DNA of 61,790 bases, counting the filler, from Platydemus manokwari (Eukaryota), in the NCBI GenBank assembly GCA_037951405.1. It is 6 parts of 6 records of this genome, joined end to end, with 100 filler letters (N's around TTAATTAATTAA, not from the genome) between each part and the next. Parts side by side here need not be neighbours in the genome. Positions count along the whole stretch, not along the records: positions 10,118 to 19,809 come from JBBMOY011217100.1; 5 more parts are not named here. The stretch is one strand, 5' to 3'. The stretch's first letter is position 1, and the number at the start of each line of letters is the position of its first letter. The position numbers were made by a program, and so were the translations under genes. The notes under the pieces are model-generated. The model was not told the DNA's origin, searched no databases, and saw only the letters and a program-made list of their open reading frames with translations. Below, one piece after another: positions 1,738 to 52,955 of the stretch.

Positions 1738-2478
1738 TTATGGTCTCACCAAATGATATCCATGCCAAATTTGTGATCCATTGTTCCAACTTTTTGGCAA
1801 TGTACTTTTGACATACGTAACTAACACACATTGATTCTCAATTACTTCATAATAAAACGATTTGCAATGGATATTTTGTAGGCATCTATAAATATAATTA
1901 TAAGTTTTTAATAAAACATAAAATACATACAAAATTCCACAGTGCACTTTATTTTTTGCAATGACTTTATCATAGCAACCCAAATCCTTGTCATTGTTAA
2001 AGATTTTTATATCATTCTTTATGAAGTTCTTTGAATTGATGATGACGGTATTATCAAATGTACATAGAAAATAAACAGTCCTAGTACAACTTATATCTGA
2101 AAGCTTTTTTTCGTAAATTGAGGTACAATCTTTTGGCTCTAATTTACTCCATAAATCATCATTAACAGATAAAGACCCATCAATATTCAACCATCCTTTC
2201 TTATTAATAATTCTTTCTTCAAATAAATCGGTAAGACCTGTATAATAATGAGTATTTTTCTTGAAGACACCGATAAATTTAATGGCTTCTATTTCACTTT
2301 CCAATAGTAATCTACCACTGATATTATAACAGAATTCACTGGCGGCACATATGTTTTTCTTTTCATCTTTAGACACATAAATACACAAATTCTCATACCG
2401 TTTGTATACACTTGGACAGCTTAAACAATCCGAAAACCGAACACCCCAAATAACTATCATAAGAATTTGACAGATCAT
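1738..2478 (-). CDS. Secreted C-type lectin domain + C-terminal PAN/apple-like domain protein; probable 45-nt intron at 1886-1930
   Basis: Hydrophobic N-terminus and CTLD cysteine pattern (CP..Y...CIY; A..FC...GRL; W..DGS; DC...L.DISC...YFLC), then a PAN-like C.GIL/CLQNIHCKSFYY....QCVL segment. The GTATGT...TATAG intron is at the same position as in the paralog at ~51.35 kb. Confidence 0.8.
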   Translation of the reverse strand: MICQILMIVIWGVRFSDCLSCPSVYKRYENLCIYVSKDEKKNICAASEFCYNISGRLLLESEIEAIKFIGVFKKNTHYYTGLTDLFEERIINKKGWLNIDGSLSVNDDLWSKLEPKDCTSIYEKKLSDISCTRTVYFLCTFDNTVIINSKNFIKNDIKIFNNDKDLGCYDKVIAKNKVHCGILYVFYVLLKTYNYIYRCLQNIHCKSFYYEVIENQCVLVTYVKSTLPKSWNNGSQIWHGYHLVRP

Positions 2479-4267
2479 ATCTGTAATGATATAAGACTAA
2501 ATACCATTGATAATATATGAAGCATCAATAGCCAATGAAATATCTGCAAGGATACAATTTTTAAATATTTTTTTCCATTTCTAAAGGATTTAAAAAAATA
2601 AAAATAAAAGTAAAAACATTTTATAAATTTAAAGATTTTTGCTATTCAAAGTATTGTTACTTCCCTATCAATGTTTTTTAAAAATCGATCTTCAATAAAT
2701 AAGCAATATCTTTAATGTCAGCTCAATGTTTTATGCATATCAAGACTGCAATTTGGAAGGAGACTCCAGATAATTAAATCATCAAAACATTTAACAAATG
2801 ATCATTTAGCTTACCTGGTAGTATTTTAATTTATTTTTAGATAAATTCCAATGTAATGATAAAACAGTCTAAGAATAAAACAAGTAAATACAAAAACTAA
2901 AGCTAAGGTTGAACATATTTATACGACATTTATTGATTATTAAGTTTTTCCAACATCACTAACAAAGCAGCGACAGTAGTGTAAAGACATGTAGTTTAAA
3001 ATTTACAGTCCACTGATGTTTTCGGAGGGAATCTTTAGACTGTCGTTTGTCTAAGTAGTACAATTAATTCGCTTTCTACGCGAAAACACACTCACTGTTG
3101 TGATTATGGAAGGCTCTAAATTTGATTCAAAGTAATCTATAATACAGTGAAGTGCTGAGCGCCACGTATCTAGAATCTAATGTATATATATAATTTAAAT
3201 AACAATAAATTCATAGAAATAAAAATATTAATTTACCAAAATACAAATTTCAAATTGGCCAAAACTTTAAGCTTTGTTGGCTTTGCTAACAAAAGTGAAA
3301 ACATAAAGAAAAACAAAAATTAAGAAAAACCTTTCAAAAGTCACATCCATTCCATTATTAAAATAGCAAAAATTGTAAGGAAAAATATTAAAACAAACAA
3401 AACCAATTTAAAACAGATTCAAGTAGAAAAGGATTGGAGAATTAATTGCTAACATCAATGCATATAGAGAAACATATATAAGTTTGAAGTAATTTCAGTC
3501 GTTCACAATGCACTATATATATATACCCTCAAAAGAAAAGAAATACTTTCAAATTCCTTAGCCTCTCCGACCGCGATTCCAAATACTTTGTCAAACAAAT
3601 GTCAGTCTAAGACACCCGTCATTGTGCTCGAATTTGGCACCACCATTAAAAGGACATACTTGTTAAAGTGCCGGACTGGTCAAACTTAGAAGTTAGAGGA
3701 GATTCCAATTAACACGGGCGTGAGAAACTGTTCTTAAGCCTTGACAAAGACAGAAATCAGTGATAAAACTCACTGACCGTTGATGCAAACTTCGATGTTT
3801 GAAAATTTGTGTCTCTGAGCTTCAATGCTAAAAAGGCAATAAATCACTTTCACAAATTTTCCAGGCAGTTTTTCCGGCGAAACAGGAAGTGAACAAAATC
3901 CAGTAGATCAAACTGAAGATTCCTAGATGAGATCAATCTACATCAATCAATTCAACCTGGTCAATTACTGATAAATTTCTACTCATAAGAGTCAAAATCA
4001 ATAAATCTAATACGAATATTGATTGAAGCTGATCGAAGAGGAGTCCAGTAGATCTAGTAATTCGAATTGGATTGGTTGATTTATATACCTTAAACCTCAC
4101 ATTTCCAAAATTTAGGTTATAGCAGCTGGGTTACATTATAAAATAATAATTACTCCACAATTATTTCTCAACTTCTCATACCCAAGCAAAGTTGATAAAA
4201 ATATGAAATTCTATTTAACGAACTTACTTGATTTTTAGAAGTGATTGCGCTTTACAGAAAAATGGAT

Positions 4268-7400: not shown

Positions 7401-10017
7401 TCGAAACTTTAAAGAGATGTGTCATAAAGATTTTGATTAAAAAAATAAGTTGTTAACGACCTATGTTATTCATAATAAATGTATTCATCTGTTCAAAATA
7501 ATAAATTATTCTAATTATAAATAGATAAATTATTTTCACCTACATAAGTATTATTGATTGAACTCAGTTCAGCTAGAAGCTAAAATAAAACTAAAACCCA
7601 AAATTCACAGGCAAATCAAGTATAGTGGTTACGGTGCCATTATGCCTAACTACAGATAAAGTCATTTTGAGGATTCTTACAGGTAAAACCAGAAGAACCC
7701 ATATAAACTATCAACTCTATCTGAATAGAGTCCAATGGAAAATTGTCAGAAAAATACGATAGAATACCTCTGGTCTCCTGGTTATTTGTCCAAATTACCA
7801 AGTTGTATCATTGCTATTACTCTGATAACTTGTTATATAGATTATAATCTATATTTTCTATTTTATTGTCACTGATTTATTCTAATAATCTATTTTATAA
7901 TTTAACTTTATGCACCTTTTGGTGTCAAATGTACTATAAATAAATATATAAGAGTTCAATCGTGTTGGATTGTGAAGTCAGAGTTGTCAAGCTTAAAGAA
8001 TTAATAGAAATGTCATAGTTTGGTTCTCTTTTATTTATTATAATTAATTATAAAAAAGACGCACATCATACAGCACAAAATATAACCCCATCAGCACCGA
8101 TGTGCAAGATAGGGATAACCACTCTAGATTGAAGAATATATGCAAAACGTAAAAAATTAAAATTAAATGGCACATTTAAAGTGATAAATTTTTAAACAAT
8201 ATTGGATATGGAAAAAAGTGGTCTTTACTCACCACACAATATTGTAAAGGCGACTACCAAGATAAAAAGAAAAGCTGATGAGTGGACTAAACAACGAGAG
8301 TCACAAAAATGTTAGAGGAAAAACGGAAGAGCTCGAGTACTGGAAAGAACACCAAAAGAATAAATTAACAATTGCGAGGAAATGAAAGAGAAGGAAAAAG
8401 TAATAAAAATTCAAAAATCACGAGAAAAAGAGAAGAAAGTAAAGGAAAAGCAGCAAAGAGGAATAGAAGAAGAACGGAAATGAGAAATGGAGAAATCTAA
8501 AAAAGAAAAGCACAAAGATAAAGACATAATACAATAGTGCGATATGGAAAGGAAAATAGTTTCCATAAATAATAAACAAAAAATACTCATAGTTAATGAA
8601 AATCCAATATAACATGGCTGCATTATCATTTAAAGCCATGAAGGTGCAGCGATCAATGGCAATCACCTCAATTTCTAAGAGAATAAAAGACCGAGGATGT
8701 TTTTAAGTGGAATAGAAAAGTAAAAATATTAAAGTATAACTACAAAATCAATCATTTCCAACAGGCATACAATAATATTCTAACAATCTCTGTCTCATGT
8801 CAAACCTCTATAATGAACCTCTCAATGTCATGTGCAATATAAACAGAACGAACAGCATTGGATGGTGGACGAATCTGGAGATATGTTGGGAAATCTTCGA
8901 GGAAATAATCGAAATAGGAGGCAACTGGGACACTAAAGTATACCGAAGATACAAATCCGAAAAAGCTGTGAGAAGATAATTACAGGGGCAATGGTCCAGG
9001 ACGAGACAATAATCTCTTCTATATTATGAGAGCTCGACAAACGAGTGGATATTTACTAAGAATATGACGCTTATAAAAATTGATTTAATTAGCATGTATC
9101 AAATCTTTGTCTTTTGTGAGATATAGATTGTGTGGCACATAATAAACTTAGAGATTATATAGTAAACTCATGTTTTCAAAATTTATCATGAGGAAAGAAA
9201 GAACTTGTGTTTCCCATTAATGCTGCAAAACTTATGCTTTTTATTTTATTAAGGAACTACAATAAAAGTGCCTCGTAGTGAGATCTCATAATAAACTTAT
9301 GTTTTCAATAAAATAAATACATAATAAAGCTATACTTTCAATTTTAGACCAATAGAAGCACTTCACAGTTAAATCTCATATTTAAAATGAAACCAATACA
9401 TAATAAGCTCAAATAAACTTATGTTTTCATAAGCAATAAAAATATAAAATAAGTTTATAATTATTAGTACATGTTTTGATATTTGAAATAATAAAGAAAA
9501 GTAATAAAATCCACAATATTTCATATCACATGTAAAAAGAAATAATAAAATCTACATTACTTCATATTATAAGTTAGTTTAATCTTGGATCTTCGATTTG
9601 TTTAAATATTTTGAATAACGTGGTTTTTCAAATTAATAAATTTTGATGAAATTTAATGATATTTTTACAGGCATCCACGCCTATATAAATGCTCTTAAGA
9701 GAGCCAAAACCGAAGAGAGACAGAAAAATTTTGTTAATCTGCTCCAGAAAACTCAAGAGTTATGGATTGCGAAGCCGTCGTTTTTTAATGAATCAATCCA
9801 AGATGCTTAAAATTGTTCTAGACAACCCAGCATTTAACCAATTGGAATTATCATTTGATTTGATATACCAAAACGTTATGGTAAGAATAAAGTAGTTTAA
9901 AAGAAAGAGATATAGAAATGGTTTTTAGAATTTTTCTCACGTATTGGGTCTATAACTTAAAAACCGGAATTTTTTTAGAACAATTGAGTGTTTATTAAAG
10001 AAAATCTTGTACAATTC

Positions 10018-10117
10018 NNNNNNNNNNNNNNNNNNNNNNNNNNNNNNNNNNNNNNNNNNNNTTAATTAATTAANNNNNNNNNNNNNNNNNNNNNNNNNNN
10101 NNNNNNNNNNNNNNNNN
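10018..10117. other. Assembly spacer (44 N + TTAATTAATTAA + 44 N)
   Basis: Identical 100-nt linker with stops in all six frames, present five times in the window. Confidence 0.97.
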
Positions 10118-10944: not shown

Positions 10945-11198
10945 CCCTAAAAATAATCATAACCCGAAAATATTTAACCCAACAACTAAAAAAAGCCCCT
11001 ATAAAAAATACCCAGATATTAAAATCACCCGCATAAAAATAAGTTACCCCTATTTTTGAATAAATGAATTCGGCTGGCAACAAGAAATAAACCCTGAATA
11101 AAATAAATTCCCTTTATTAAATATTAATATCCACCCGTATAATGCGATGACAACCCGCGTTCAAAAGAAATTCGTTTGGATTAAAATGAAAAGAGCCC
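10945..11198. repeat. Quasi-periodic CCC (minus-strand GGG) tract array at the 3' end of the LTR element
   Basis: C3-4 tracts start at 10945, 10963, 10978, 10996, 11011, 11028, 11047, 11092, 11110, 11134, 11154 and 11196 in an A/T-rich background. Confidence 0.6.
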
Positions 11199-11573
11199 TC
11201 ATTTTAATCGAAATTCGGGCTGTAAAATCAGTAGTCTCCGAGCTGCCTGTTAAAACATACCCACTTGTTAATCGTAATCAACATTCGAAGTATTCGTTGC
11301 CGAAGCCAATTTCCCTGTTGCCAGTATATGCCAAGGTTTATCTGGAGGATCAATTTTGATAATTGATATTAAATTCGTTCGAGAAGAAGTCCAAGGATCG
11401 AGTAAGATAATTCCTGTAAAATCATTATACATCTACAACATCAACATCGTATATTCTTCCTATTTATAGGGTTAAACCAAAAGTCCTTTTATAAACGGTT
11501 CTACTCCTCTTGGGAGCATTGTTAATTTATTGGCATAAAAGAAACTCGTTTCAAAAATGATAATGGGCAATGA

Positions 11574-12153
11574 TCATTTTTTATCATATTGTACACAAGT
11601 GGTTCCATCTGTTTGGCAGGATGGGAATTCTGAATTACAAGATGGGTATTGTGTCATTGTTCCCGTGGTCAAGTCAAAAGTAGCTTCATATGTCCGTAGC
11701 TCTATTTGGTAGTCTTCTATGTCAACTACATGGGAGATATGTTCTCCTTTCCTATATTTTGGACGGCCTATACATGTTCCTTCCGGTTTGATGTGGCCTC
11801 CTCTGGTTATTGTTTCTGCCATTATTGATCCCACTTTTACCATTAACTTTAATTCATTATCTTTTCGTAGTTTCTCAGTATCAAATGCTTCATTACAATT
11901 TTCTGGTGAAATTTTAATACTTATAGGTATTACCTTAGTATCCAGAATAGTTGTTCTGCTGAATGCTCCACAGTAGTACTCGAAGACAGCTCGAGTGACT
12001 CGGCATTCCTTAACAGTTGTTCTGTTGTTCTTTTCCTTGATAAACGGAGTAGTTCTCTTTTGGTCCTTTAGTAACTTTATATGTGTGTACCGTTGGGCAG
12101 TTAATAAGATTTACTAAAGAGTATATAGTAGATAGCTTTGGTTTGGCACAGCC
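11574..12153 (-). pseudogene. Envelope-like glycoprotein N-terminal ectodomain, chuvirus-glycoprotein-like; one frameshift near 12020-12035, C-terminal part broken or deleted
   Basis: Hand translation: LTA*GCAKPKLSTIYSLVNLINCPT...VYQ / RTTVKECRVTRAVFEYYCGAFS...ISPENCNEAFDT...TITRGGHIKPEGTCIG...HVVDIEDYQIELRTYEATF...CNSEFPSC. Motif order matches my recollection of chuviral-type G (AYDC...SLL.V..C; C.I.I.R..YYCG..S; IS...C; G....G.C.G; VV.....I.L). Confidence 0.7.
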
Positions 12154-12852
12154 TTATGCTGTAAGCATAGATGTTTTATTTATCAATCCCAATATTATAA
12201 CCAGTTTTAGTAATGTACTCATAAACCCTTCATTTAGTCCTCCTAGAGTTTCTATTCCAGTTATTGGGTTAGGTGGTTTTTGAATAAAGTTTTCCCATCC
12301 TCCATTTAATTGTATCCATCCGTTGATAGAGTTGTGTGCTATCCTAGTCATTCGATTGACTGTATCGTTTAATTGATTATCGCTTAGTTGTGATGCTTGT
12401 AGTATTTGATTTACTAGATAGGTTAGAGCAGCTTTAGTTCGTGCTTCCGTTAATCCATCTTGTACTAATTCGTTTATTAGAGTTTGTGGGTCGTTATCCT
12501 TATCGTTTATTGCCTTCCTAATTCGAGGTAAATATTTCTTTATTTCTACAATGAGTTCTTCATATCCTTCGAGTGAAACCCTTGGTAATTTGGTATTTTG
12601 AGGTTCCACTCCTCTTGCTAATTTTAGTAAAGTTTCTTTTATACTGCTTTTTACAGATGGCATTGTTTCGTCTGCTATGTTTCTTAATATTCTACTTTTT
12701 AGTTTAGTACCTACTTTTGGGTTTATTAGTTCCGTTGGTGGTTGAATTTTAATTATTTGAGAGTGAGGTGGTCTACCTCTTTTTCGTTGCCTTCTATCTC
12801 TTGGTTCATGTGGTTCGTTTCTTTGATTTGTTTCATTTTCGTCAATTAGATA
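12154..12852 (-). CDS. Bcl-2-like domain within the retroelement frame (ATG-initiated ORF 12154-12663; frame open from 12852), preceded by an AT-hook and followed by a hydrophobic segment
   Basis: ELVQDGLTEARTKAALTY resembles BH1 ELFRDGVNWGRIVAFFSF. WIQLNGGWENFI resembles BH2 WIQENGGWDTFV. E-to-W spacing is 51 aa versus 52 in Bcl-xL. Hydrophobic tail FMSTLLKLVIILGLI. Confidence 0.7.
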   Translation of the reverse strand, partial: YLIDENETNQRNEPHEPRDRRQRKRGRPPHSQIIKIQPPTELINPKVGTKLKSRILRNIADETMPSVKSSIKETLLKLARGVEPQNTKLPRVSLEGYEELIVEIKKYLPRIRKAINDKDNDPQTLINELVQDGLTEARTKAALTYLVNQILQASQLSDNQLNDTVNRMTRIAHNSINGWIQLNGGWENFIQKPPNPITGIETLGGLNEGFMSTLLKLVIILGLINKTSMLTA

Positions 12853-13915
12853 TTAATTTCTTGGTAGTTCGTCAAGTAGATTATCAGTTTCTATTATTAA
12901 TACGTTTGGTGTATTTAGGTCTGCCGTCGGCGGTAAAGTTTCATGTGGCGGTATAGTTTCATCTATGTCCACCTGAGATGGCTGGAGTTGAGTTTCTTCT
13001 ACTTGCGGAATTATTCCTTAATCTAATATCGGGATTGTGACTCTTTTCCAGTTTTTGTTAGTAGTAGGAACATTAATTACTTGTATTGATATTGTATATC
13101 CTGGTAGACATCCTATATCTACTAAGTATTCGTCATCGTCTATCGGTATTCCCATGCGGCTATAACGAATGGGTCCCGAGGTTGTTTTTACTCAATTATG
13201 TCATTTCTTAATCTTTTAGTTTTAGCGAATATGGAATAGTGGTTTATCCAGCTTCCGCCGTATTGCGGAGTCCTGTATGAGTACTGAGATCGGTTCTTAA
13301 ATCCTATTGCTATTTCTCATTGCGAGTCCGTTAAGTCGTAGTATTATCTGTTTACGTGGTAGGTTTACTTAGTTGATTTGTTAGTAAAGGCTCTAATTTT
13401 CTAATGTTTCGACAGGAGCAGTGACATATACAATACTCTCAAGCATTCTAAGTATTTTTTCTTGATCGATTATTCTTTGAGCTAATTCATTTTCGACTTC
13501 AGCTGGTAATTGTAATAGCTCTCTTTTTTCTGCCTGTGTCATTTCAATTGTGACTAGTGTGTTTTCTGTGTCTAGTGCTTTAATTTTTTTGGTATGATTA
13601 TTAATATTTTTAGTTAGATCCGTTTTGGGATCATAATTCGTAGGCATGATTATCATATCATCCTGTTTATGTAAGGTGTGCTGACCTATCTCTGTATCTT
13701 CGGCGGCTCAGCCGATTGTATATTTTGTATGAAGTTGGCTTCTGAGGCCTCATTAAGAAGTGACGTTTCGAGAGTATCGGCGGCTGCAGCAGTAGTAAGT
13801 GATATATCGTTATCTTTAGCTAAGGAGTTTTGTTTTTCTATTTTTAACTTGTTATTTCCTCCGATTGTCTTAGTTTACTATATGAGCTTGTTGAGAGTAT
13901 TACATTATAATGTTC

Positions 13916-15036
13916 CTATCGCGTACGTAGTCGCTCTAGTCTTATTCGTTCATCGTGAACTTGTTGCTCAAGTTGCACAAGTTTATCATATTTTTCCTGT
14001 TGTGTTAAACACACTTTTTGTATTATAGGCTTTTGTTGAGTATCCTTTGAATTAGTAGGGCATGATCGTCCTATATGTTCGAATTGGTTGCACCTAAAAC
14101 ATTTTATTTGTCCCTTAAGATTTACATTATCTCTTTTATCATTATTTTCCGTGATTGTTTTACCTCGGCAGATTAACGCGAGATGTCCCATTTTTACGCA
14201 TTTATCGCATTTTAAGTTGGTACATTTACATTGGCTTGTCGAGTGGTTTGTTCGACCACATTTGTTACATGGTATCGGTTTACCGTTTATATCTTTCATT
14301 GATCTGCATTCATTTGTTCGATGTCCAGTACGGAGGCATTCCTGACATTTTAAATTGGGTTTAGTATTGTTTTCATTTTTTTGTCCTTTAAAATTATTAT
14401 TATTAATATTGTTATTATTATTTTGCCACTTATTTTTTTATTTCTTGTACAGCGATTCCAAATTCGTTATTCCTCATGCTTGCATCCGCTATTCGTGCCT
14501 GGTGTACTAATTGTCCAAATTCATCTCCTATATGTAAGCTGAGTGCGTTTTTTATGGTTAAGTAGTCCGTCCCACAATTGATCTTTTACCATTTCTTCTT
14601 TATCGGGATCCCAATTTACTCTAGGGCCAAAAGCTCTTTCAGCTAATATTGTAAGTTGGTTGGCGAATTCCCCTATATGTTCCCCTGGTAATTGCTTCCG
14701 ATTTTTATATTGCTGCCTATACATTCTTCCTATGTTGGGTGGTAGAAGCGCTTCTCCGAAGGCTTGTTTAAAGTTATTCCACACTTGTAGTGGGGTGTCT
14801 CGGTTCATGATACGATTATATTGGTCCTTTGCCATACCTGTTAGATATATAGGCAGCTTTCTAATCATCTGATAATTGGTAATGTCGGCCATAAACTCGT
14901 GAAATCTACTAGGTTCCCCATTGTAAGGTTCTAATTTCATTTTTATATGTTGTTGCGCATTTGGTATGATTCTGGGAATCACATTTACCACTGGTGGTCG
15001 AATATTAGGTTGTTGTACGTTTTCTTCTTTCATCAT
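13916..15036 (-). pseudogene. gag: gag (capsid + four CX2CX4HX4C zinc knuckles), frameshifted around 14520 and 14430
   Basis: LEPYNGEP..F..F, LPIYLTGMAK..Y, W..FKQAF, RKQLPGEHIGEFANQL..LA and VKDQLWDGL are retrotransposon Gag motifs. Knuckles: CQECLRTGHRTNEC, CNKCGRTNHSTSQC, CDKCVKMGHLALIC, CFRCNQFEHIGRSC. Confidence 0.88.
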
Positions 15037-15041
15037 TATAT

Positions 15042-15059
15042 ATCACGTCGGGCTCACCA
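15042..15059 (-). promoter_or_regulatory. Primer-binding site complementary to the tRNA-Trp 3' end
   Basis: TGGTGAGCCCGACGTGAT matches the canonical tRNA-Trp PBS TGGTGACCCCGACGTGAT at 17/18. It lies 2 nt after ...CAACA and 5 nt before the gag ATG. Confidence 0.82.
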
Positions 15060-15061
15060 CT

Positions 15062-15157
15062 TGTTGAGTTCTCTTAGTGTTCGGGTTAGTTTACGAATAA
15101 CTTATTCTATATCCCAACTTATGCGTGTTCTCCTTATTTGTCAAATATTTTGCAACA
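15062..15157 (-). repeat. Candidate short (96-bp) 5' LTR
   Basis: Minus strand begins TGTTG and ends CAACA (5-bp inverted termini) directly before the PBS. No second copy is visible, so the 5' boundary is unconfirmed. Confidence 0.5.
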
Positions 15158-16074
15158 CCTGACTCCAAAGGTGCAGTGTATAATAACTATCCTTTATAAA
15201 AATTGAGATATATAATATATAACATATATAATATATAATATATAATGAAACAACTCGACTTCGTTTAAAAATATATTAAGATTTAGTTTAGTTATCAAAT
15301 ACAATATCAACAATTGATAAGATTGATATTAATAGACAATAGATGCTAATTAACAAATAACAAGCCTCGATGGGGGACGATTTGATGATTAATTGATTTA
15401 TGTTAAAACGCTAGATTTTACAGACTATATGTAGATAGAGTGTTAAATTTTGTTTGGTCTTTTATGGGTATCCCTGTAAGAGCCCTTTAATCGATTTTAT
15501 TGGGTTTTAGGCCTACTTGGCACCATAACCCCTTAGATCAAGTTTGTTTTGAATTTTATTTCTTTTTTGGTGCGAGTACCTCTAGTTGAACTGGGTTCAA
15601 TCTAGAGTTTTTATGTGATGGATGCAAATATGCTATGATATTTGTTTTAATAGGTAGAGCTTGAATAATTGATTTACAATTTGGTTTTTTTGATTCAAAA
15701 TAAAATTCAAATAAAATTAACTTGTTAATAGTTTAAATTGTTTAATATATACCAGTACAACTATAATTGTTGTCGGTTATTGAATTGCGATATAATAAAA
15801 TTGATTGTTATTGAAATTAATAGTATATCAAATCAATGTTTTAATAGAGATTATACTTATTAAATATGAAATTGCTTAACTCTTATTATTATCAATGATA
15901 AATCCTTACAATGATGTTGATAATTGCGGTCTGGTGATAGGCACTTTCTTTTACTTCTTCTTGTTCCCCATTTGGCTCCTTTTCTCAAAATTTATCTGCT
16001 TTTTCTGAGAGAACTTTGCTTTCTATGGCTCCTAGTTCTGTTTTCTTTAGTAACGTTTCTTGTTAAGTTGTTCC

Positions 16075-16296
16075 GCGAAGCTTCTAGTATCGTTATACCG
16101 TGATGGTTCTTTTATAGTAGAGAATAGTTTCGATTGTAGATAACAAGATTAATGCTTTTTCGTCTGAATAATAGTTGAAGTAATTCTTCTGCGAAGCTTC
16201 TTGTATCGGGATGGTCCTTTTATAGTAGAAGATTGAGTTGACTGTCAATAGTGAGATAAATGATTTTCCGTCTGAATAATAGTTGAGACAATTCTT
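16075..16296. repeat. Diverged tandem duplication, ~116-bp period
   Basis: Both units share GCGAAGCTTCT.GTATCG...GATGGT.CTTTTATAGTAGA...CGTCTGAATAATAGTTGA. Confidence 0.8.
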
Positions 16297-18463
16297 TAGG
16301 TGCGTTGTGTCAGATAACTAATTGTCCTTGATGACTTGGTATTGGGTAACTAATTATTTTTGTTGAATTGCTGTCACTGATAAGGCAAGTAATTATGAGA
16401 GGCAATTAGGTTTCTTTTGATTAGTGCGGTTATTTCTAAATTAGTTGTTTGTGGTGGTTAATTTAATTTTCTTGTCTTTTTATATTAATTTAATTTCTTC
16501 TTCGATTTCTTTTTTCTCTATTTTTTGTCTAAATTATTGCTATTTTTGCTTCAAAAATCCTCATTTTTCTATTTTTAAATCATGTATAAATTATGTTACT
16601 ATTTTTGTAATTATTTATTACTCTTTTTGTTATTTATTAACTTGTAGGGTTATTTTAGGAGTAAAAATCTGTAGTGACTAATATAGCTAATTTTTAATTA
16701 TCGTTATCTCCTTTTACTTTTAATTAATAATTAACATATTTTTATTTAATGACAATGACAATGCTCAATGTTCCATGTTCATTTTTATTTATGACAATGA
16801 TAATGACAACCATGTTCCCAACAATGTTCCCAACAATTATTACAATACTAGCATCAATTCAATGCCTGGAGAATGACCGAGCTTCTTCCAGACCGAAAGT
16901 CCTTTCACTGCTAATTTAAATCTGACAAAAAGTTATTCTCAAGCAGCCAGGCAAAACAGAGTCTAGCTACAAGAATTTCTTAAAAATTTTCATCTCCAAA
17001 CTTTTGGTAGAACAAGGGTTCACAATTGATTTTTAAATTTCTTGTAAAACAGAAAGCTGAAATATTTGTGCTTCTTCAGTTCAAATTCAATGCATAAAGA
17101 ATTCACAATACAAATTCGTTATAAGCCAATCGAGTAGTGAGTCTTATGATAATTGTGAACTCTTTTCCTTCATTCAAGCAATGTGAAATCAGTTCCTTTT
17201 CTTATTCTTGAGATCTAATCACTTCATTGGGTCATCTCAAACTCGTTAAGAAACATGCGTTGTGGTCAAGGTACCCTATATGTCGAACCTCCAGCGAATT
17301 TAAAATGTATTATAATAAATCTTCTCATGAATTTCAAATGCTCCATCTATTATGTAATTAATATTGCTCAAATCTATGATAAATATATAAAACTTACCCA
17401 AACAGAGTAATCCAATATTTCAAGAAATCAAGCAGAAATATGTGAATTGTTTGTTTTTATAACAATTGTTTACGTCCTAGTGTAAACATAAAAGTCTAAA
17501 GAACATTAGAATAAAGTATATTGTGTTGTCTGCTCGAACTATAATCGAGATGAAATGTAAACGTGCTAAAATCAAATTTTGAATCAAGAGCTTCTACCCT
17601 TTGTATTTCAAATACATTTTTAATCAGAAGTTATTCAGTGGCTTCACTTACTGTGCAACTATTATTAGAAAATAAGTCAGATATAAATTAAACCCACGTT
17701 AGAAAATCAGTAGTTTAAGTCATGACAATAAATAAATTCAGTTTTTCATTGTATTGTTTGTACAGTGTAATAAAAATCAAGTCGGCAATGCACAAGCTAA
17801 TTGATCAAAGTAAGAAAAGCAATTATAATAGGAAATTATAAGTAACCGACTTGTTTTTAATACCCGTGAATTTTAATCTTTTAAAACTCAAAGAAATGAC
17901 AGAGCATACATTATCATATAAACAAGGCAATGATAAAAAGTTAATAATCTGGCAGACGACAAATTGAATTAAAATTAAGTTTTTAAACAAGTTTGAAGCA
18001 CACCTTTGGTCAAAACGTTTTGGTTTTGGATTAAAAACTAGAACAACAAATTTTCAAACTTTTAATATATAAAACACTGAAATACTTAGCTCTGATGTTC
18101 TTATTCTGAATCTTTTAAGATATTTCAGAAATATTAAAATAAATTTAACAAAACTACCTTTTTAATTTAATTTTGCTACATAAATTTTATCTTTATTAAC
18201 TCTATATTATCAATGTAATCTTTTTTAACTTTTCTCTAAATAATTTTGTGATACAAATTTAAAATATTTAAATAACTTTTTTAACAAACCAATCATATTT
18301 TATAATAAAACTTGGATAATAAAATTAAATTAAAATTTATTTTAACTTTTTAAACTCTGTATTTAGGTGTTTGTTTTGTTATTTGTTATTTATTTTCAAG
18401 AAAATCATTTTGTAGGTATTGCTTGATTTTAAACACTAATAATTAGATTTAATTGAACAGAAG

Positions 18464-19809: not shown

Positions 19810-19909
19810 NNNNNNNNNNNNNNNNNNNNNNNNNNNNNNNNNNNNNNNNNNNNTTAATTAATTAANNNNNNNNNNNNNNNNNNNNNNNNNNNNNNNNNNN
19901 NNNNNNNNN
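19810..19909. other. Assembly spacer
   Basis: N44-TTAATTAATTAA-N44. Confidence 0.97.
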
Positions 19910-22900: not shown

Positions 22901-23364
22901 TTTTGAGCTCTGATGATTTTTATAACAAAAATCTGTGATCAAACAAAACAGGTAATTATAAATTTTGAAAATCTATCAATAATTGCAAATATTTCAAAAC
23001 ACGTCTAAATTAATGGCTAGATATGTTAATTCGACCTAACTTTTGAGAATAATTAAAAATTAGAGAATGTTATGAAGTTCTTCATTGTATTCGGATTAAT
23101 ATAAATAAATGAAATAAATTGTTTATCCATTTTTTAGTTTTGTTTTCTTGATTAATTTGTTAATAAACAGACTGACTTTAAATTATTTTTAATTTTAAAA
23201 TAAAGGTTGTAATATTGAAATATAAATTTATTTAATTTTTAAACAACGAATTACATTTTCAATTAAAGCGAAACATTAAATAATTTTGAGTTGTTGTTCA
23301 TGATTCAGATAAAAATATGTCGAAATAAATTTGTTTTAAAATATAATAAAAAAATTTATTTATT

Positions 23365-24138
23365 ATGAACAATGATAAATGCCAAATCAAGAAACGATCT
23401 CGAAAAGATATGTCTTTCAAAGAAAAAAAGGAACTGATAGAACAATTAAAGAATGAAACAAATAAAAACCAAAGATACTTGGCCAAAAAGTATCGGATTT
23501 CATTAGGAATGATAAATAAGCTGTTGAGAAGTACAAATTTAATCGGTGATAGTGAGTGTGAGCTACGGAATTTGGAAAGAAAACGAAGAGCACCGCTCAG
23601 AAAGACAAAAGAAATCGAGCCGATTCTGTACAGATGGTTCCAAAGGCAACAGGCTATGAATATTACATTGAAGAAAGATGATTTTAAAACGAAAGCCTTA
23701 GAAATAGCATTGAAATTGAAAGTCAACGATTTTAGAGCTTCTGACGGTTGGATGTGTGCCTTTCTGAAGAGAAATCTTATAACATTAGACGGCGGTTTTA
23801 CTAAAATCAATACAATTCATGATGGTTTTAATAGAAAAATAGTGAAATCAGAAAGTAATGATGTTTGTATGTCAAACCAAAGTACTTCAGTCAAAGAGCA
23901 ATCTAATGAGAATATCCATATTTATTTAACAGATCATATTTCAGAACAGAATATTCAGTATATCAAAGAAGAACCAGTGTTACATGATACTAGTGAAGAT
24001 TATAATTTAAAAAATGATGATATCTGCAAGTGTATTTTAAAATTAGAAAGATTCTTTATGTTAAACCTTCCCCACAAAATAGACCAAATTCGGGCAATCA
24101 AAGAATCATTTATTGATAATTTTTTGCTGACTAAATGA
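23365..24138 (+). CDS. CENP-B/Tigger/pogo-type DNA-binding protein (psq-type HTH + CENP-B HTH), no DDE domain
   Basis: RKDMSFKEKKELIE...QRYLAKKYRISLGMINKLL; EIEPILYRWF....R...I.......KALEIA.KL...DFRASDGWMCAFLKRN. Intact 257-aa ORF that ends without a catalytic domain. Confidence 0.85.
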   Translation: MNNDKCQIKKRSRKDMSFKEKKELIEQLKNETNKNQRYLAKKYRISLGMINKLLRSTNLIGDSECELRNLERKRRAPLRKTKEIEPILYRWFQRQQAMNITLKKDDFKTKALEIALKLKVNDFRASDGWMCAFLKRNLITLDGGFTKINTIHDGFNRKIVKSESNDVCMSNQSTSVKEQSNENIHIYLTDHISEQNIQYIKEEPVLHDTSEDYNLKNDDICKCILKLERFFMLNLPHKIDQIRAIKESFIDNFLLTK

Positions 24139-31091: not shown

Positions 31092-31191
31092 NNNNNNNNN
31101 NNNNNNNNNNNNNNNNNNNNNNNNNNNNNNNNNNNTTAATTAATTAANNNNNNNNNNNNNNNNNNNNNNNNNNNNNNNNNNNNNNNNNNNN
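31092..31191. other. Assembly spacer
   Basis: N44-TTAATTAATTAA-N44. Confidence 0.97.
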
Positions 31192-39721: not shown

Positions 39722-40455
39722 TATTTTTGATAATCTCTGCAATGAAATTGGAATTCGTAGTATTTGGAAATTATATTGAACGATTGAATGATCGCGGTCC
39801 CCCACCATGTATAGCAGAATGGGCCATCATTGTGTATCTAGCAGGTTGTTATTTTTTTTAAAAATAAACCCAAACTTTGAATATTATTTTTATTACCAGG
39901 TTACATATGGCAAGAAATCAAACAACTCTATTCCAATGGTTTAAGAGCTTACTTGGCTGACATGTGGAACCTGTTAGATTTCTCCACAAATGCTCTATAT
40001 ACGGCTACACTTGCTCTTCGCTCCTGTGCTTATTTCAAAGTATATTCATCATTTTAATTTATATAATTCATATGATAATCACAGGTGAACGGGAGTCCTG
40101 ATAGAAATGTAGAGAGAAAGCTTTGGGAGGCTTATGAGCCAGTATTAATATCTGAATGCTTATTTGCTAGTGCCACCATTTTCAGTGTGTTAAAACTAGT
40201 ATTTATGTTTACTATAAATCCAAGACTTGGACCTCTTCAAATATCGCTTGGTCGAATGTTGAGAGATATTCTAAATTTCTTCTCGCTTTATATGTTGGTT
40301 TTAGTTGCCTATGGTTTCGGTATTCATCAATTGCTATGGTTTTATTCTCATGAGCGCCAAGAAAGATGCAAATCAGTGGTGTTTGATTACAATTTAACTG
40401 GGCAGGATCTTGAACGCTATCAATATTGTACCACCAGAGGCAGATACTTTTCAAA
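39722..40455 (+). CDS. TRPC-type (canonical TRP) cation channel, partial: exons 39722-39844, 39900-40039, 40085-40455 (S1-S5 region)
   Basis: Spliced: FLIISAM...RGPPPCIAEWAIIVYLAG|YIWQEIKQLYSNGLRAYLADMWNLLDFSTNALY...FK|V...WEAYEPVLISECLFA.A.IFS.LKL...INPRLGPLQISLGRMLRDI. GT-AG introns of 55 and 45 nt with consistent phases. Confidence 0.93.
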
Positions 40456-40587
40456 GTAATTCATTGCCATTTATCTTTTACTAATAAATTTCAATTATAT
40501 TTGTCATGCGTTAATAAGATTAGCTTTGAAATATTTTTTGTTTGTGAAACCATATAATGGTTTACAAAGTTATTAATATTTATAGAA

Positions 40588-40641: not shown

Positions 40642-40741
40642 NNNNNNNNNNNNNNNNNNNNNNNNNNNNNNNNNNNNNNNNNNNNTTAATTAATTAANNN
40701 NNNNNNNNNNNNNNNNNNNNNNNNNNNNNNNNNNNNNNNNN
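40642..40741. other. Assembly spacer
   Basis: N44-TTAATTAATTAA-N44. Confidence 0.97.
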
Positions 40742-49293: not shown

Positions 49294-50809
49294 TTTTAAG
49301 TTCTTGTAAACTCAATAGAAATTAAATTTATTGGAAAATTTAGTAATCAGTAAAGAAATATTTGATTTAATAAAACAATTACTTTTGAAATAATTTTTTA
49401 ATTAAAATTTTGATTTGAGATGAATCAATAATTAAATTAAAATATATTAATATAATAATAATTTCTTATTTACATGTATATATATAACATAATAAATAAA
49501 ATTATTATAAAGAAATAAATATGAAAAATGATTTTTGAATGACAAAGTAGAATTAAATGATGATTAAAAACTTGCACAACCAAGAAATTAAATTTCGTTT
49601 TTGCATATAAATTAAAAGATTGATGGGGAGTACAGGTAGGTATACAATCACACATAAGAACAGTCTAAGAAGTAAGGCATACGTATGAATAAGAAACCTT
49701 AAAAAGCAAAGTTATTTTATACGCATTCACAATTAAAAAATATTGTTATGATAATAAATGCTCGATAGTCACATATCTCTCAGTATTTCATAATTTTCAC
49801 AATATCATTTCAGTAACCTTCATATCCATTGACTTCTTAGTTTCTTTATTTATTAAAGTCTTATCCATTTGTTTTGATAGCAAAAATTAGTTTTTATACT
49901 TCTAATTACGATTTGGGAGTGAAGATGTTAGCACATCACACTATACTCTCATTAATTGAAATATGCGTTCTCATTGTTTATAATGGTAGACAGGTTCATG
50001 ATTTGTGATCGATATGTATCAAAAATATTTAAAAAGGAATTATGAAGGGTTTCATTAGAGCTTTCAGTAGCAATGGTTGATTTCATTTCAATAATATTCT
50101 TAGGAATTAAAGTTGGAGTATTAACATTGTAATTAATTCTAGCGTGTTGATCAGTCATTTTCTTAAATTACCCTTTGTGTATCGTACCAGTTTCTTTATC
50201 ATACCGGAATCTATCATCCTGGAAATGATAACTAATGCCTAACATGTCTTCGAAATTGTTTTATTTATTCTTATACTAAGATTAAACAATATGAATTTAA
50301 ATTTATTTTATAAAAACACAGATTCTATTGTGCATAGTCTTAACAAATTTAATAAAGCATTTTAAATCGGCATGCCTTGGCTTTCAATAAAATAAGATAA
50401 ATCGATATAAAAACATGATTCACGAATATTATCCTCGTTTAAAACAAATTATTTTACAATTATATATCGAGATACCCACGAAAACAACACCAACTATTTG
50501 TGTATATTTCAATAAAACAATGAGATTTCACTTTAATATTCTTCAGTCTCTTTTATTGCCAATATTATGATTGATGTTTACATTATCCTTATAAAGTCAT
50601 TATTATTTTAAATTTTTTTATATTTACAATAGCAATGACCACATTTTTGTGCCACAGATTTATTTTTTTGGAAAATTTAAGCGAAATAAAATATTTAAAC
50701 AAAAGATATTTCATATTTAGTTAAATTAAAAATTTCATTTCCTGACACTTATTATTGGTTGAAATAATCTACATCACGATAGTAGTATTCAATTTTTGTC
50801 ATTTTGAAA

Positions 50810-51542
50810 ATGATTGTTTTTATCTTATTGTTCCTGTACTGCGACCATCAAAAGCAATGGAGTGTCCTGTTAACTTCAAACCTTGTGGATCAATTTGCTA
50901 TTATGTTGAAGATCAATTTGAAAACTTTTTGCAGGGCTTCTGAAACATGTTATTCAATGAATGGAACATTAGCAATGGATACGGAAATACAATTACTCTG
51001 GTCATGTCTAAATAAGAATGTTCAATTCATTACTGGAAAAACGGATTTGTTAAATGAACGATATCGCAATAAAACTCAATGGATTAATAATGATGGATCA
51101 TTATTTGGAAATACGAAATTGTGTTGCGTAAACCAACCGGAAAATTTTAAAGGTAATGAAGACTGTACGCGTAGTACGAATATAGGTCTTGGTGATGTTA
51201 AATGTAATGAAGGTGGTGTTGTTGTGTGTGTTAGCGTTAATTATTTGAAGAACAATTCCAAACGATTCAAAATACATTCCAAAAGCTTCTTTAATAACAA
51301 TCATGTTATAAAATAATCAATTCGAAAAGTAAATTGAATTGCGGCGCACTGTAAACGATTTTTTCAATTGTAACATTTTATTGATATTTAATTGTAGATG
51401 CCTTAAAGATGATAACTGCAAATCGTTCTACTACAATGATTCCGGAAAACAATGCGCTTTGGCTCAATATGCTCTCAGCACTCTATCGAGACATTGGAAT
51501 AATGGAAAAGATATTTGGCATGGATATCATATAATTCCTTAA
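50810..51542 (+). pseudogene. Frameshifted paralog of the C-type lectin + PAN gene at 1738-2478
   Basis: Fragments in different frames: MIVFILLFL / MECPVNFKPCGSICYYVE / KTFCRASETC...TGKTDLLNER...WINNDGSL / CLKDDNCKSFYY...QCAL...WNNGKDIWHGYHIIP*. Same intron position and near-identical C-terminus (WNNG..IWHGYH..P). Confidence 0.82.
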
Positions 51543-52855: not shown

Positions 52856-52955
52856 NNNNNNNNNNNNNNNNNNNNNNNNNNNNNNNNNNNNNNNNNNNNT
52901 TAATTAATTAANNNNNNNNNNNNNNNNNNNNNNNNNNNNNNNNNNNNNNNNNNNN
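52856..52955. other. Assembly spacer
   Basis: N44-TTAATTAATTAA-N44. Confidence 0.97.

Follow-up and report, generated by a model that had tools for sequence, protein, structure and literature searches.

A probable dead, 3'-truncated GAG-ENV-POL Ty3/gypsy retrotransposon with a Bcl-2-like domain and a class III env fragment in Platydemus manokwari

Organization of the element remnant

The window, by which we mean the whole stretch of DNA analyzed (61,790 nucleotides, filler included, from Platydemus manokwari assembly GCA_037951405.1), is a string of AT-rich contigs separated by identical artificial linkers (10018-10117, 19810-19909, 31092-31191, 40642-40741 and 52856-52955), each composed of N44, a 12-nt palindrome and N44. 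The window is therefore a set of joined contigs, and neighbours across the linkers are not linked. The feature described here lies on the contig at 10118-19805, where the minus strand carries, in order, a tRNA-Trp-like primer-binding site (PBS), gag with four zinc knuckles, a ubiquitin-like remnant, a Bcl-2-like domain, a signal segment and the start of env:

15062..16300, minus strand: probable 5' LTR, inferred from its adjacency to the PBS, with a terminal CA and an undefined far boundary
16068-16296: duplication with a 108-bp period inside the putative LTR, two copies at 74-77% identity
15042..15059, minus strand: tRNA-Trp-like PBS of 18 nt, single match in the window
14521..15036, minus strand: capsid part of gag (Retrotrans_gag), with an ATG at 15036, six bases past the PBS
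14060..14347, minus strand: gag nucleocapsid with four CX2CX4HX4C zinc knuckles (Pfam zf-CCHC, E=3.5e-8)
13078..13250, minus strand: weak ubiquitin-like remnant, seemingly in two frames (tblastn)
12280..12597, minus strand: Bcl-2-like domain with BH1- and BH2-like segments, within a 232-codon open frame (12852-12157)
12181..12225, minus strand: hydrophobic signal or membrane-anchor segment, immediately upstream of the mature Env
12028..12153, minus strand: env piece 1, in the frame of the Bcl-2-like domain, past a stop (tblastn to relatives)
11577..12023, minus strand: env piece 2, 149 codons with six cysteines, class III fusogen ectodomain (PF24664)
11495..11596 (approximately), minus strand: env piece 3, frameshifted, the end of detectable homology (env profile)

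The LTR/PBS junction reads CA-NN-TGG (the CA end, two bases and then the PBS), and the first 12 nt of the PBS agree at 11/12 bases with the 3' end of tRNA-Trp(CCA) as listed in the consulted part of the supplement to PMC13524379. No second LTR was found in the contig, and Rfam returned nothing meaningful at 14900-17400. On another contig, the segment 7519-7743 (plus strand) was 66% identical to 15415-15643 of the LTR region (E=4e-18), with no coding match nearby; it may be an ancient solo LTR. We rejected the reading of 7500-9300 as a further copy of the element, since only LTR-like similarity, without a coding match, was present there.

The capsid part of gag matched Retrotrans_gag at a level below the curated Pfam cut-off (E=4.4e-4), and tblastn aligned it with the Gag of two of the relatives described below (P0025, E=1e-7; P0010, E=4e-6). 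Its frame is broken by stops and a frameshift upstream of the knuckles. The knuckles start at 14347, 14269, 14209 and 14101, and all four have the CX2CX4HX4C spacing reported in the initial annotation. The CX2CX3HX4C spacing, an array of which we take to be BEL-type, was found neither in the window nor in the relatives. The ubiquitin-like remnant was not significant alone in tblastn (E=0.017 to P0005 and E=0.54 to P0018). It was the best window match of a three-sequence ubiquitin-like profile, yet only at E=0.076, and Pfam ubiquitin had no match anywhere in the window; relative P0010 had a Pfam ubiquitin match (E=0.031) at the equivalent position.

The capsid part of gag, the Bcl-2-like domain, the signal segment and env piece 1 share one frame. 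The main frame from 13899 to 12040 contains 18 stops per 620 codons, many of them in frameshifted segments. Env follows gag directly, about 1.8 kb from the knuckles, with no pol in between, as in elements of the GAG-ENV-POL type, and no pol was found in the window. This position of env, ahead of pol, directly after gag and behind a Bcl-2-like domain, was absent from the initial annotation. The window copy is dead and 3'-truncated, and is unable to make a working Env or to transpose by itself.

The env fragment and its relatives

Translation of the window located all five of the cysteine-patterned Env motifs quoted in the initial annotation, on the minus strand and spread over two frames:

12120-12094, minus strand: SLVNLINCP, in one frame
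12008-11958, minus strand: ECRVTRAVFEYYCGAFS, in the second frame
11912-11895, minus strand: ISPENC, in the second frame
11804-11766, minus strand: RGGHIKPEGTCIG, in the second frame
11732-11697, minus strand: HVVDIEDYQIEL, in the second frame

A frameshift near 12,03x splits the two frames, and the env GC at 12153 is preceded by a stop codon. The env frame at about 12110-11577 (minus strand) matched Pfam PF24664, Monjiviricetes_fusion (E=2.7e-12), with a score of 45.9 bits that exceeds the curated cut-off of 27 bits. An env profile recovered the segment that includes env piece 1 (E=1e-12) and, more strongly, env piece 2 (E=9e-48), which 34 relatives matched at 25-54% identity. Env piece 3 had a profile score of 3.0 versus -0.3 for the best shuffle, a domain of any kind being reported in 92/100 shuffles. 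The env gene thus reaches past 11574-12153, with a signal-like segment upstream and the third, frameshifted piece downstream, and the env of the window copy extends over about the first third of the full-length protein. The relatives gave no tblastn match in the window to the C-terminal part of env or to pol downstream of 11495. With its stop and frameshifts, the window copy lacks a complete Env ectodomain with a C-terminal membrane anchor, and the env in the window is a pseudogene fragment. Pfam assigned no family in six frames of 10948-11575, and three small upstream pieces also gave none (0/9 in all). Env-like words were noticed by eye at 11440-11290, where the env profile gave no support. 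The segment 10950-11490, past the env break, is relatively GC-rich, and its six frames matched neither a Pfam family nor env or pol. A word-based homologue search with the env frame returned 0/205 candidates, and the ESM Atlas gave no usable match for the env piece.

A search of 1.84 billion representative proteins (E<=0.001) yielded 36 proteins, 34 of which match the env part of the window. P0028 and P0033, both repetitive, were dropped because their match is confined to the tail past env. In P0022 and P0034, a host domain is joined to env, which suggests chimeric gene predictions. PF24664 was present in all 23 of the 36 relatives that were scanned with Pfam. For the fold comparison, we used the near-complete relative P0009, which is 37% identical to the window env piece (E=9e-24) and was modelled from 28 sequences with a pLDDT of 73.7. 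Against the PDB, all 36 matches listed for this model were herpesvirus gB (best E=1.9e-12); the TM-scores were low, at about 0.26. Against BFVD, the best match was the glycoprotein of Tacheng tick virus 4 (E=2.5e-40, 21% identity), which we take to be a chuvirus, and the next matches were chu-like, qin-related and xinmovirus glycoproteins. The family Env shared 16-21% sequence identity with the nearest viral G and 9-13% with gB, and no fusion protein came up when PDB sequences were searched with a profile of the env alignment. The similarity to chuviral G and gB proposed at the outset was thus recovered by structural comparison, on the P0009 model instead of the window fragment. Together with PF24664, it argues that the assignment of the window Env as a chuvirus-like/gB-like class III fusion glycoprotein holds, the fold being that predicted for P0009. 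The Jingchuvirales/Monjiviricetes G proteins and herpesvirus gB would share the class III fold and the PF24664 family with this Env, which, unlike them, is embedded in a retroelement polyprotein.

In the four RT-bearing relatives (4/4), env is followed by protease, RT, RNase H and integrase, and three further relatives have env followed by protease. After env, several relatives (P0005, P0006, P0008 and P0013) have more than one aspartic-protease-like stretch. The RT motif of the RT-bearing relatives is Y(I/L)DD. The best PDB match of the P0015 pol was the Ty3-G Gag-Pol (E=5e-119), in a list containing no BEL structure, so this match by itself does not exclude BEL. No BEL/Pao marker family was among the Pfam matches of the scanned relatives at E<=0.001. 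A Ty3/gypsy rather than a BEL/Pao family, as the initial annotation had it, is supported by the gypsy-type pol of the four RT-bearing relatives and by the presence of the closest published env on a Ty3/gypsy element. Since the window contains no pol, the RT clade of the window copy is inferred.

The broken window copy, without pol, could also be seen as a chuvirus-derived endogenous viral element (EVE), or an Anakin-like BEL/Pao env, inserted in an unrelated gypsy element, and fragmentary gypsy and BEL-Pao sequences frequently flank Jingchuvirales EVEs (PMC10084718, in the part consulted). However, the Bcl-2-like domain, the signal segment and env piece 1 lie in the capsid-gag frame. Collinear matches to the window also occur within single relatives, covering gag, knuckle, Bcl-2-like region and env in P0010, and gag and env in both P0025 and P0005. 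The gag and env of the window therefore belong to one element. These collinear polyproteins contradict a nested insertion, against which the lack of BEL/Pao marker families in the relatives also speaks, and we regard it as extremely improbable.

An env tree was inferred from the window and the 30 of 36 relatives whose alignment covered 95 residues or more. The window clustered with five short proteins (99/98 support), none of which has pol. The base of the tree lacked resolution, so the pattern of gain or loss of the Bcl-2-like domain is not readable from it.

The Bcl-2-like domain and the signal segment

In a phmmer search of the PDB with the frame 12157-12852, all 60 matches listed were Bcl-2/Bcl-xL (best E=0.004), with an alignment spanning the BH1- to BH2-like segments. 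A profile built from four relatives alone matched the domain in the window at E=2.8e-11, and the Pfam match was at E=0.067. The model of the domain (pLDDT 62) gave only Bcl-2 family members among the 48 Foldseek matches listed (best E=0.01), with nothing at E<=0.001. With VIA-align, generic helical bundles ranked ahead of BAK, which came sixth (Z=6.0), and the Bcl-2 family accounted for 9 of the best 50 matches. The top three ESM Atlas entries were Bcl-2-like-15, BID and Bcl-2 clusters (scores 0.82-0.85), which we treat as leads only. A word-based homologue search with this region, a weak method, returned 0/9 candidates, and one with residues 15-370 of P0013 retrieved nothing but the query out of 2247 candidates. 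The BH2-like WIxxNGGW is conserved. The canonical BH1 groove motif NWGR is absent, being replaced with TEAR in the window and altered also in the four relatives, and canonical BH3 binding is therefore uncertain. Each of these lines is moderate, but several concur, and we consider the Bcl-2-like assignment, which rests on sequence and model comparisons, moderately supported. The domain was found in 4/36 relatives, at the same place, corresponding to 4 of the 15 with more than 100 residues upstream of env.

The signal segment has the maximum 15-residue hydropathy of the frame (2.37), and the relatives have the same segment before env. A KRGRPP sequence, presumably an AT-hook-like motif, is located at about 12770-12785 (minus strand), upstream of the Bcl-2-like domain. 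RGRP/PGRP motifs occur at the equivalent place in P0005, P0006, P0008 and P0010, including relatives without a Bcl-2-like domain.

The Bcl-2-like frame, from the Met at 12663 to the stop (169 codons), might be read as a stand-alone, tail-anchored gene co-opted by the host. This frame is open over 232 codons, versus 18 stops per 620 codons in the surrounding main frame, and it ends right behind the membrane segment; Bcl-2 proteins likewise end just after a membrane segment. However, many of the 18 stops are in frameshifted segments, and the env piece is also open, over 149 codons, so such open stretches arise without selection. The word-based search, which is a weak one, also recovered no close homologue of similar length. 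Host co-option is thus highly unlikely, and we retain the reading of this frame as part of the retroelement.

Within that reading, the Env signal segment of this compact, Burro-related family could have a second role, anchoring a functional Bcl-2-fold protein at its tail, an idea that we put forward as rather doubtful. We found neither a tail-anchor topology nor a functional test of a retroelement Bcl-2-like domain in the literature searched. If it were true, cleavage of the polyprotein would yield a membrane-bound viral Bcl-2 facing the cytosol and deliver Env to the secretory pathway, so that an enveloped retroelement would itself encode a regulator of cell death or signalling in the host. 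A functional Bcl-2-like domain would place retroelements alongside large DNA viruses as encoders of Bcl-2 mimics, with a bearing on the persistence of mobile elements in adult stem cells.

Relationship to published elements

The region is very probably a dead, 3'-truncated GAG-ENV-POL Ty3/gypsy LTR retrotransposon related to Burro/GYPSM1 and to the Smed errantiviruses. Burro and GYPSM1 are said to go back to Jurka 2007 and Grohme 2018. The consulted part of a later description (Arkhipova & Yushenova 2019, PMC6431247) gives these planarian gypsy elements a Gag-Ubi-BCL2-Env-PR-RT order, a Gag with a retrotrans_gag motif and 2-3 CCHC knuckles, and an env in frame between BCL2 and the protease that is similar to mononegavirus glycoproteins, its class being left mixed. 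The same part describes a Burro polyprotein of 4,873 aa with MATH, BIR and ankyrin domains, and copies decayed by stops and frameshifts (PMC6431247). As far as this description goes, the window resembles Burro in having a Gag with knuckles, a BCL2-like domain directly before env and an env after gag; the weak ubiquitin-like match lies where the Burro order would place the Ubi domain. It differs in having four knuckles rather than two or three, and in its gag-to-env span of about 1.8 kb, which is much more compact than the 4,873-aa polyprotein. No Pfam match to MATH, BIR or ankyrin domains was found in the window. Given the compact size and the missing MATH, BIR and ankyrin domains, we consider the element Burro-like but not Burro proper, the two having been compared by description alone.

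Env proteins of the gB type have been surveyed on Ty3/gypsy elements across animals, with an ancient origin argued, and the GAG-ENV-POL order is reported in nematodes, bryozoans and flatworms (Chary & Hayashi, eLife 2026, PMC13524379, in the part consulted). In that part, all six Smed errantivirus elements are assigned to Ty3/gypsy RT clade E, no PBS is listed for them, and the env configuration of Smed_errantivirus_4 is given as C1a (PMC13524379). The FEYYCG and TITRGG motifs each occur once in the consulted part of its gB-type env supplement, both in Smed_errantivirus_4. A by-eye count gave 65/138 identical residues (about 47%) between the window env and the excerpted Smed_errantivirus_4 env, gap-free and with 6/6 cysteines aligned. 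The window thus shares the gag-env order and all six Env cysteines with this class, from which it differs in being broken and truncated and in representing a distinct family at about 47% Env identity, as far as the excerpt extends. An element of this kind is therefore already in print, and the window contains a further, distinct family of a published element type. Judged by its relatives alone, the element would probably have a planarian-type flatworm as host.

These results bear on the capture scenario of the initial annotation, a Mag-clade element with a separate, independent acquisition of a chuvirus glycoprotein. The CX2CX4HX4C knuckles and the chu-like glycoproteins as the closest viral folds are in keeping with it, and GAG-ENV-POL elements are reported to be non-monophyletic. 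However, the knuckle spacing is general to retroelements rather than Mag-specific, Burro having two or three knuckles of the same CCHC type (PMC6431247, in the part consulted), and the window has no RT, so the 'Mag-type' label is not sustained. Env identity is only 16-21% to the nearest viral G versus 47% to the published flatworm element. Furthermore, the consulted tree text of PMC13524379 places Cer1, not Mag, beside a flatworm gB-type element, and an ancient acquisition is argued there. The scenario thus appears very improbable. The accompanying premise that gypsy env genes are F-like only is likewise not supported, gB-type env being present on gypsy elements in flatworms, nematodes and bryozoans (PMC13524379, in the part consulted). 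The premise is accounted for by an earlier study of arthropods (Dezordi 2023), the consulted part of which reports no clear gypsy capture (PMC10084718) and which the survey (PMC13524379) has superseded. We therefore return to the Burro- and errantivirus-related Ty3/gypsy element as the preferred reading.

Two further comparisons concern other glycoprotein-bearing elements. Sacco et al. 2022 reportedly described non-canonical nematode ERVs, metaviruses with an RNA-virus-like glycoprotein before pol; the family of the window also has an RNA-virus-like glycoprotein ahead of pol. Anakin, attributed to Dezordi 2020, is said to be a mosquito BEL/Pao element with a chuvirus-like G. Anakin and Ascaris Tas belong to the same broad fusogen class as the window Env but have a BEL/Pao backbone, whereas the relatives of the window have a gypsy-type pol behind env. 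The one nematode env row consulted in the PMC13524379 supplement was far more divergent, and FEYYCG/TITRGG occurred in no nematode row of the consulted part.

The intact ancestor most likely encoded one long polyprotein, which would have had the order Gag, ubiquitin-like and Bcl-2-like domains, signal segment, class III Env, protease, RT, RNase H and integrase. Its reverse transcription would have been primed by tRNA-Trp. The hydrophobic segment before Env may have served as an internal signal, with signal-peptidase cleavage behind it releasing Env into the ER lumen. The upstream Bcl-2-like part would then have stayed on the cytosolic face of the membrane, in the topology of cellular Bcl-2 proteins, where it might have acted in host cell death or signalling, and Env could have mediated cell-to-cell spread. 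An infectious ancestor is plausible. The locus adds little if viewed as a gypsy element with a chuvirus-like env, since this copy is dead and catalogues of such elements already span the animals. It is of modest interest in tying together two reports that, in their consulted parts, do not refer to each other's features, that on Burro (BCL2 and env) and the survey of gB-type errantiviruses, in the available main text of which Bcl-2 and Burro have 0 mentions (PMC13524379). The window represents a compact relative in which the Bcl-2-like domain has been kept immediately ahead of a class III env.

Elsewhere in the window, C-type lectin frames were found at 1738-2496 (minus strand), with an additional weak PAN domain, and at 50786-51316 (plus strand). 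A Tc5/CENP-B-type transposase DNA-binding domain (E=8e-12) is located at 23350-24138 (plus strand), and an ion-channel exon (Ion_trans, E=4.5e-6) at 40079-40459 (plus strand). The segment 4268-4436 forms a hairpin with 84-nt arms that are 92% complementary and 1 nt apart.
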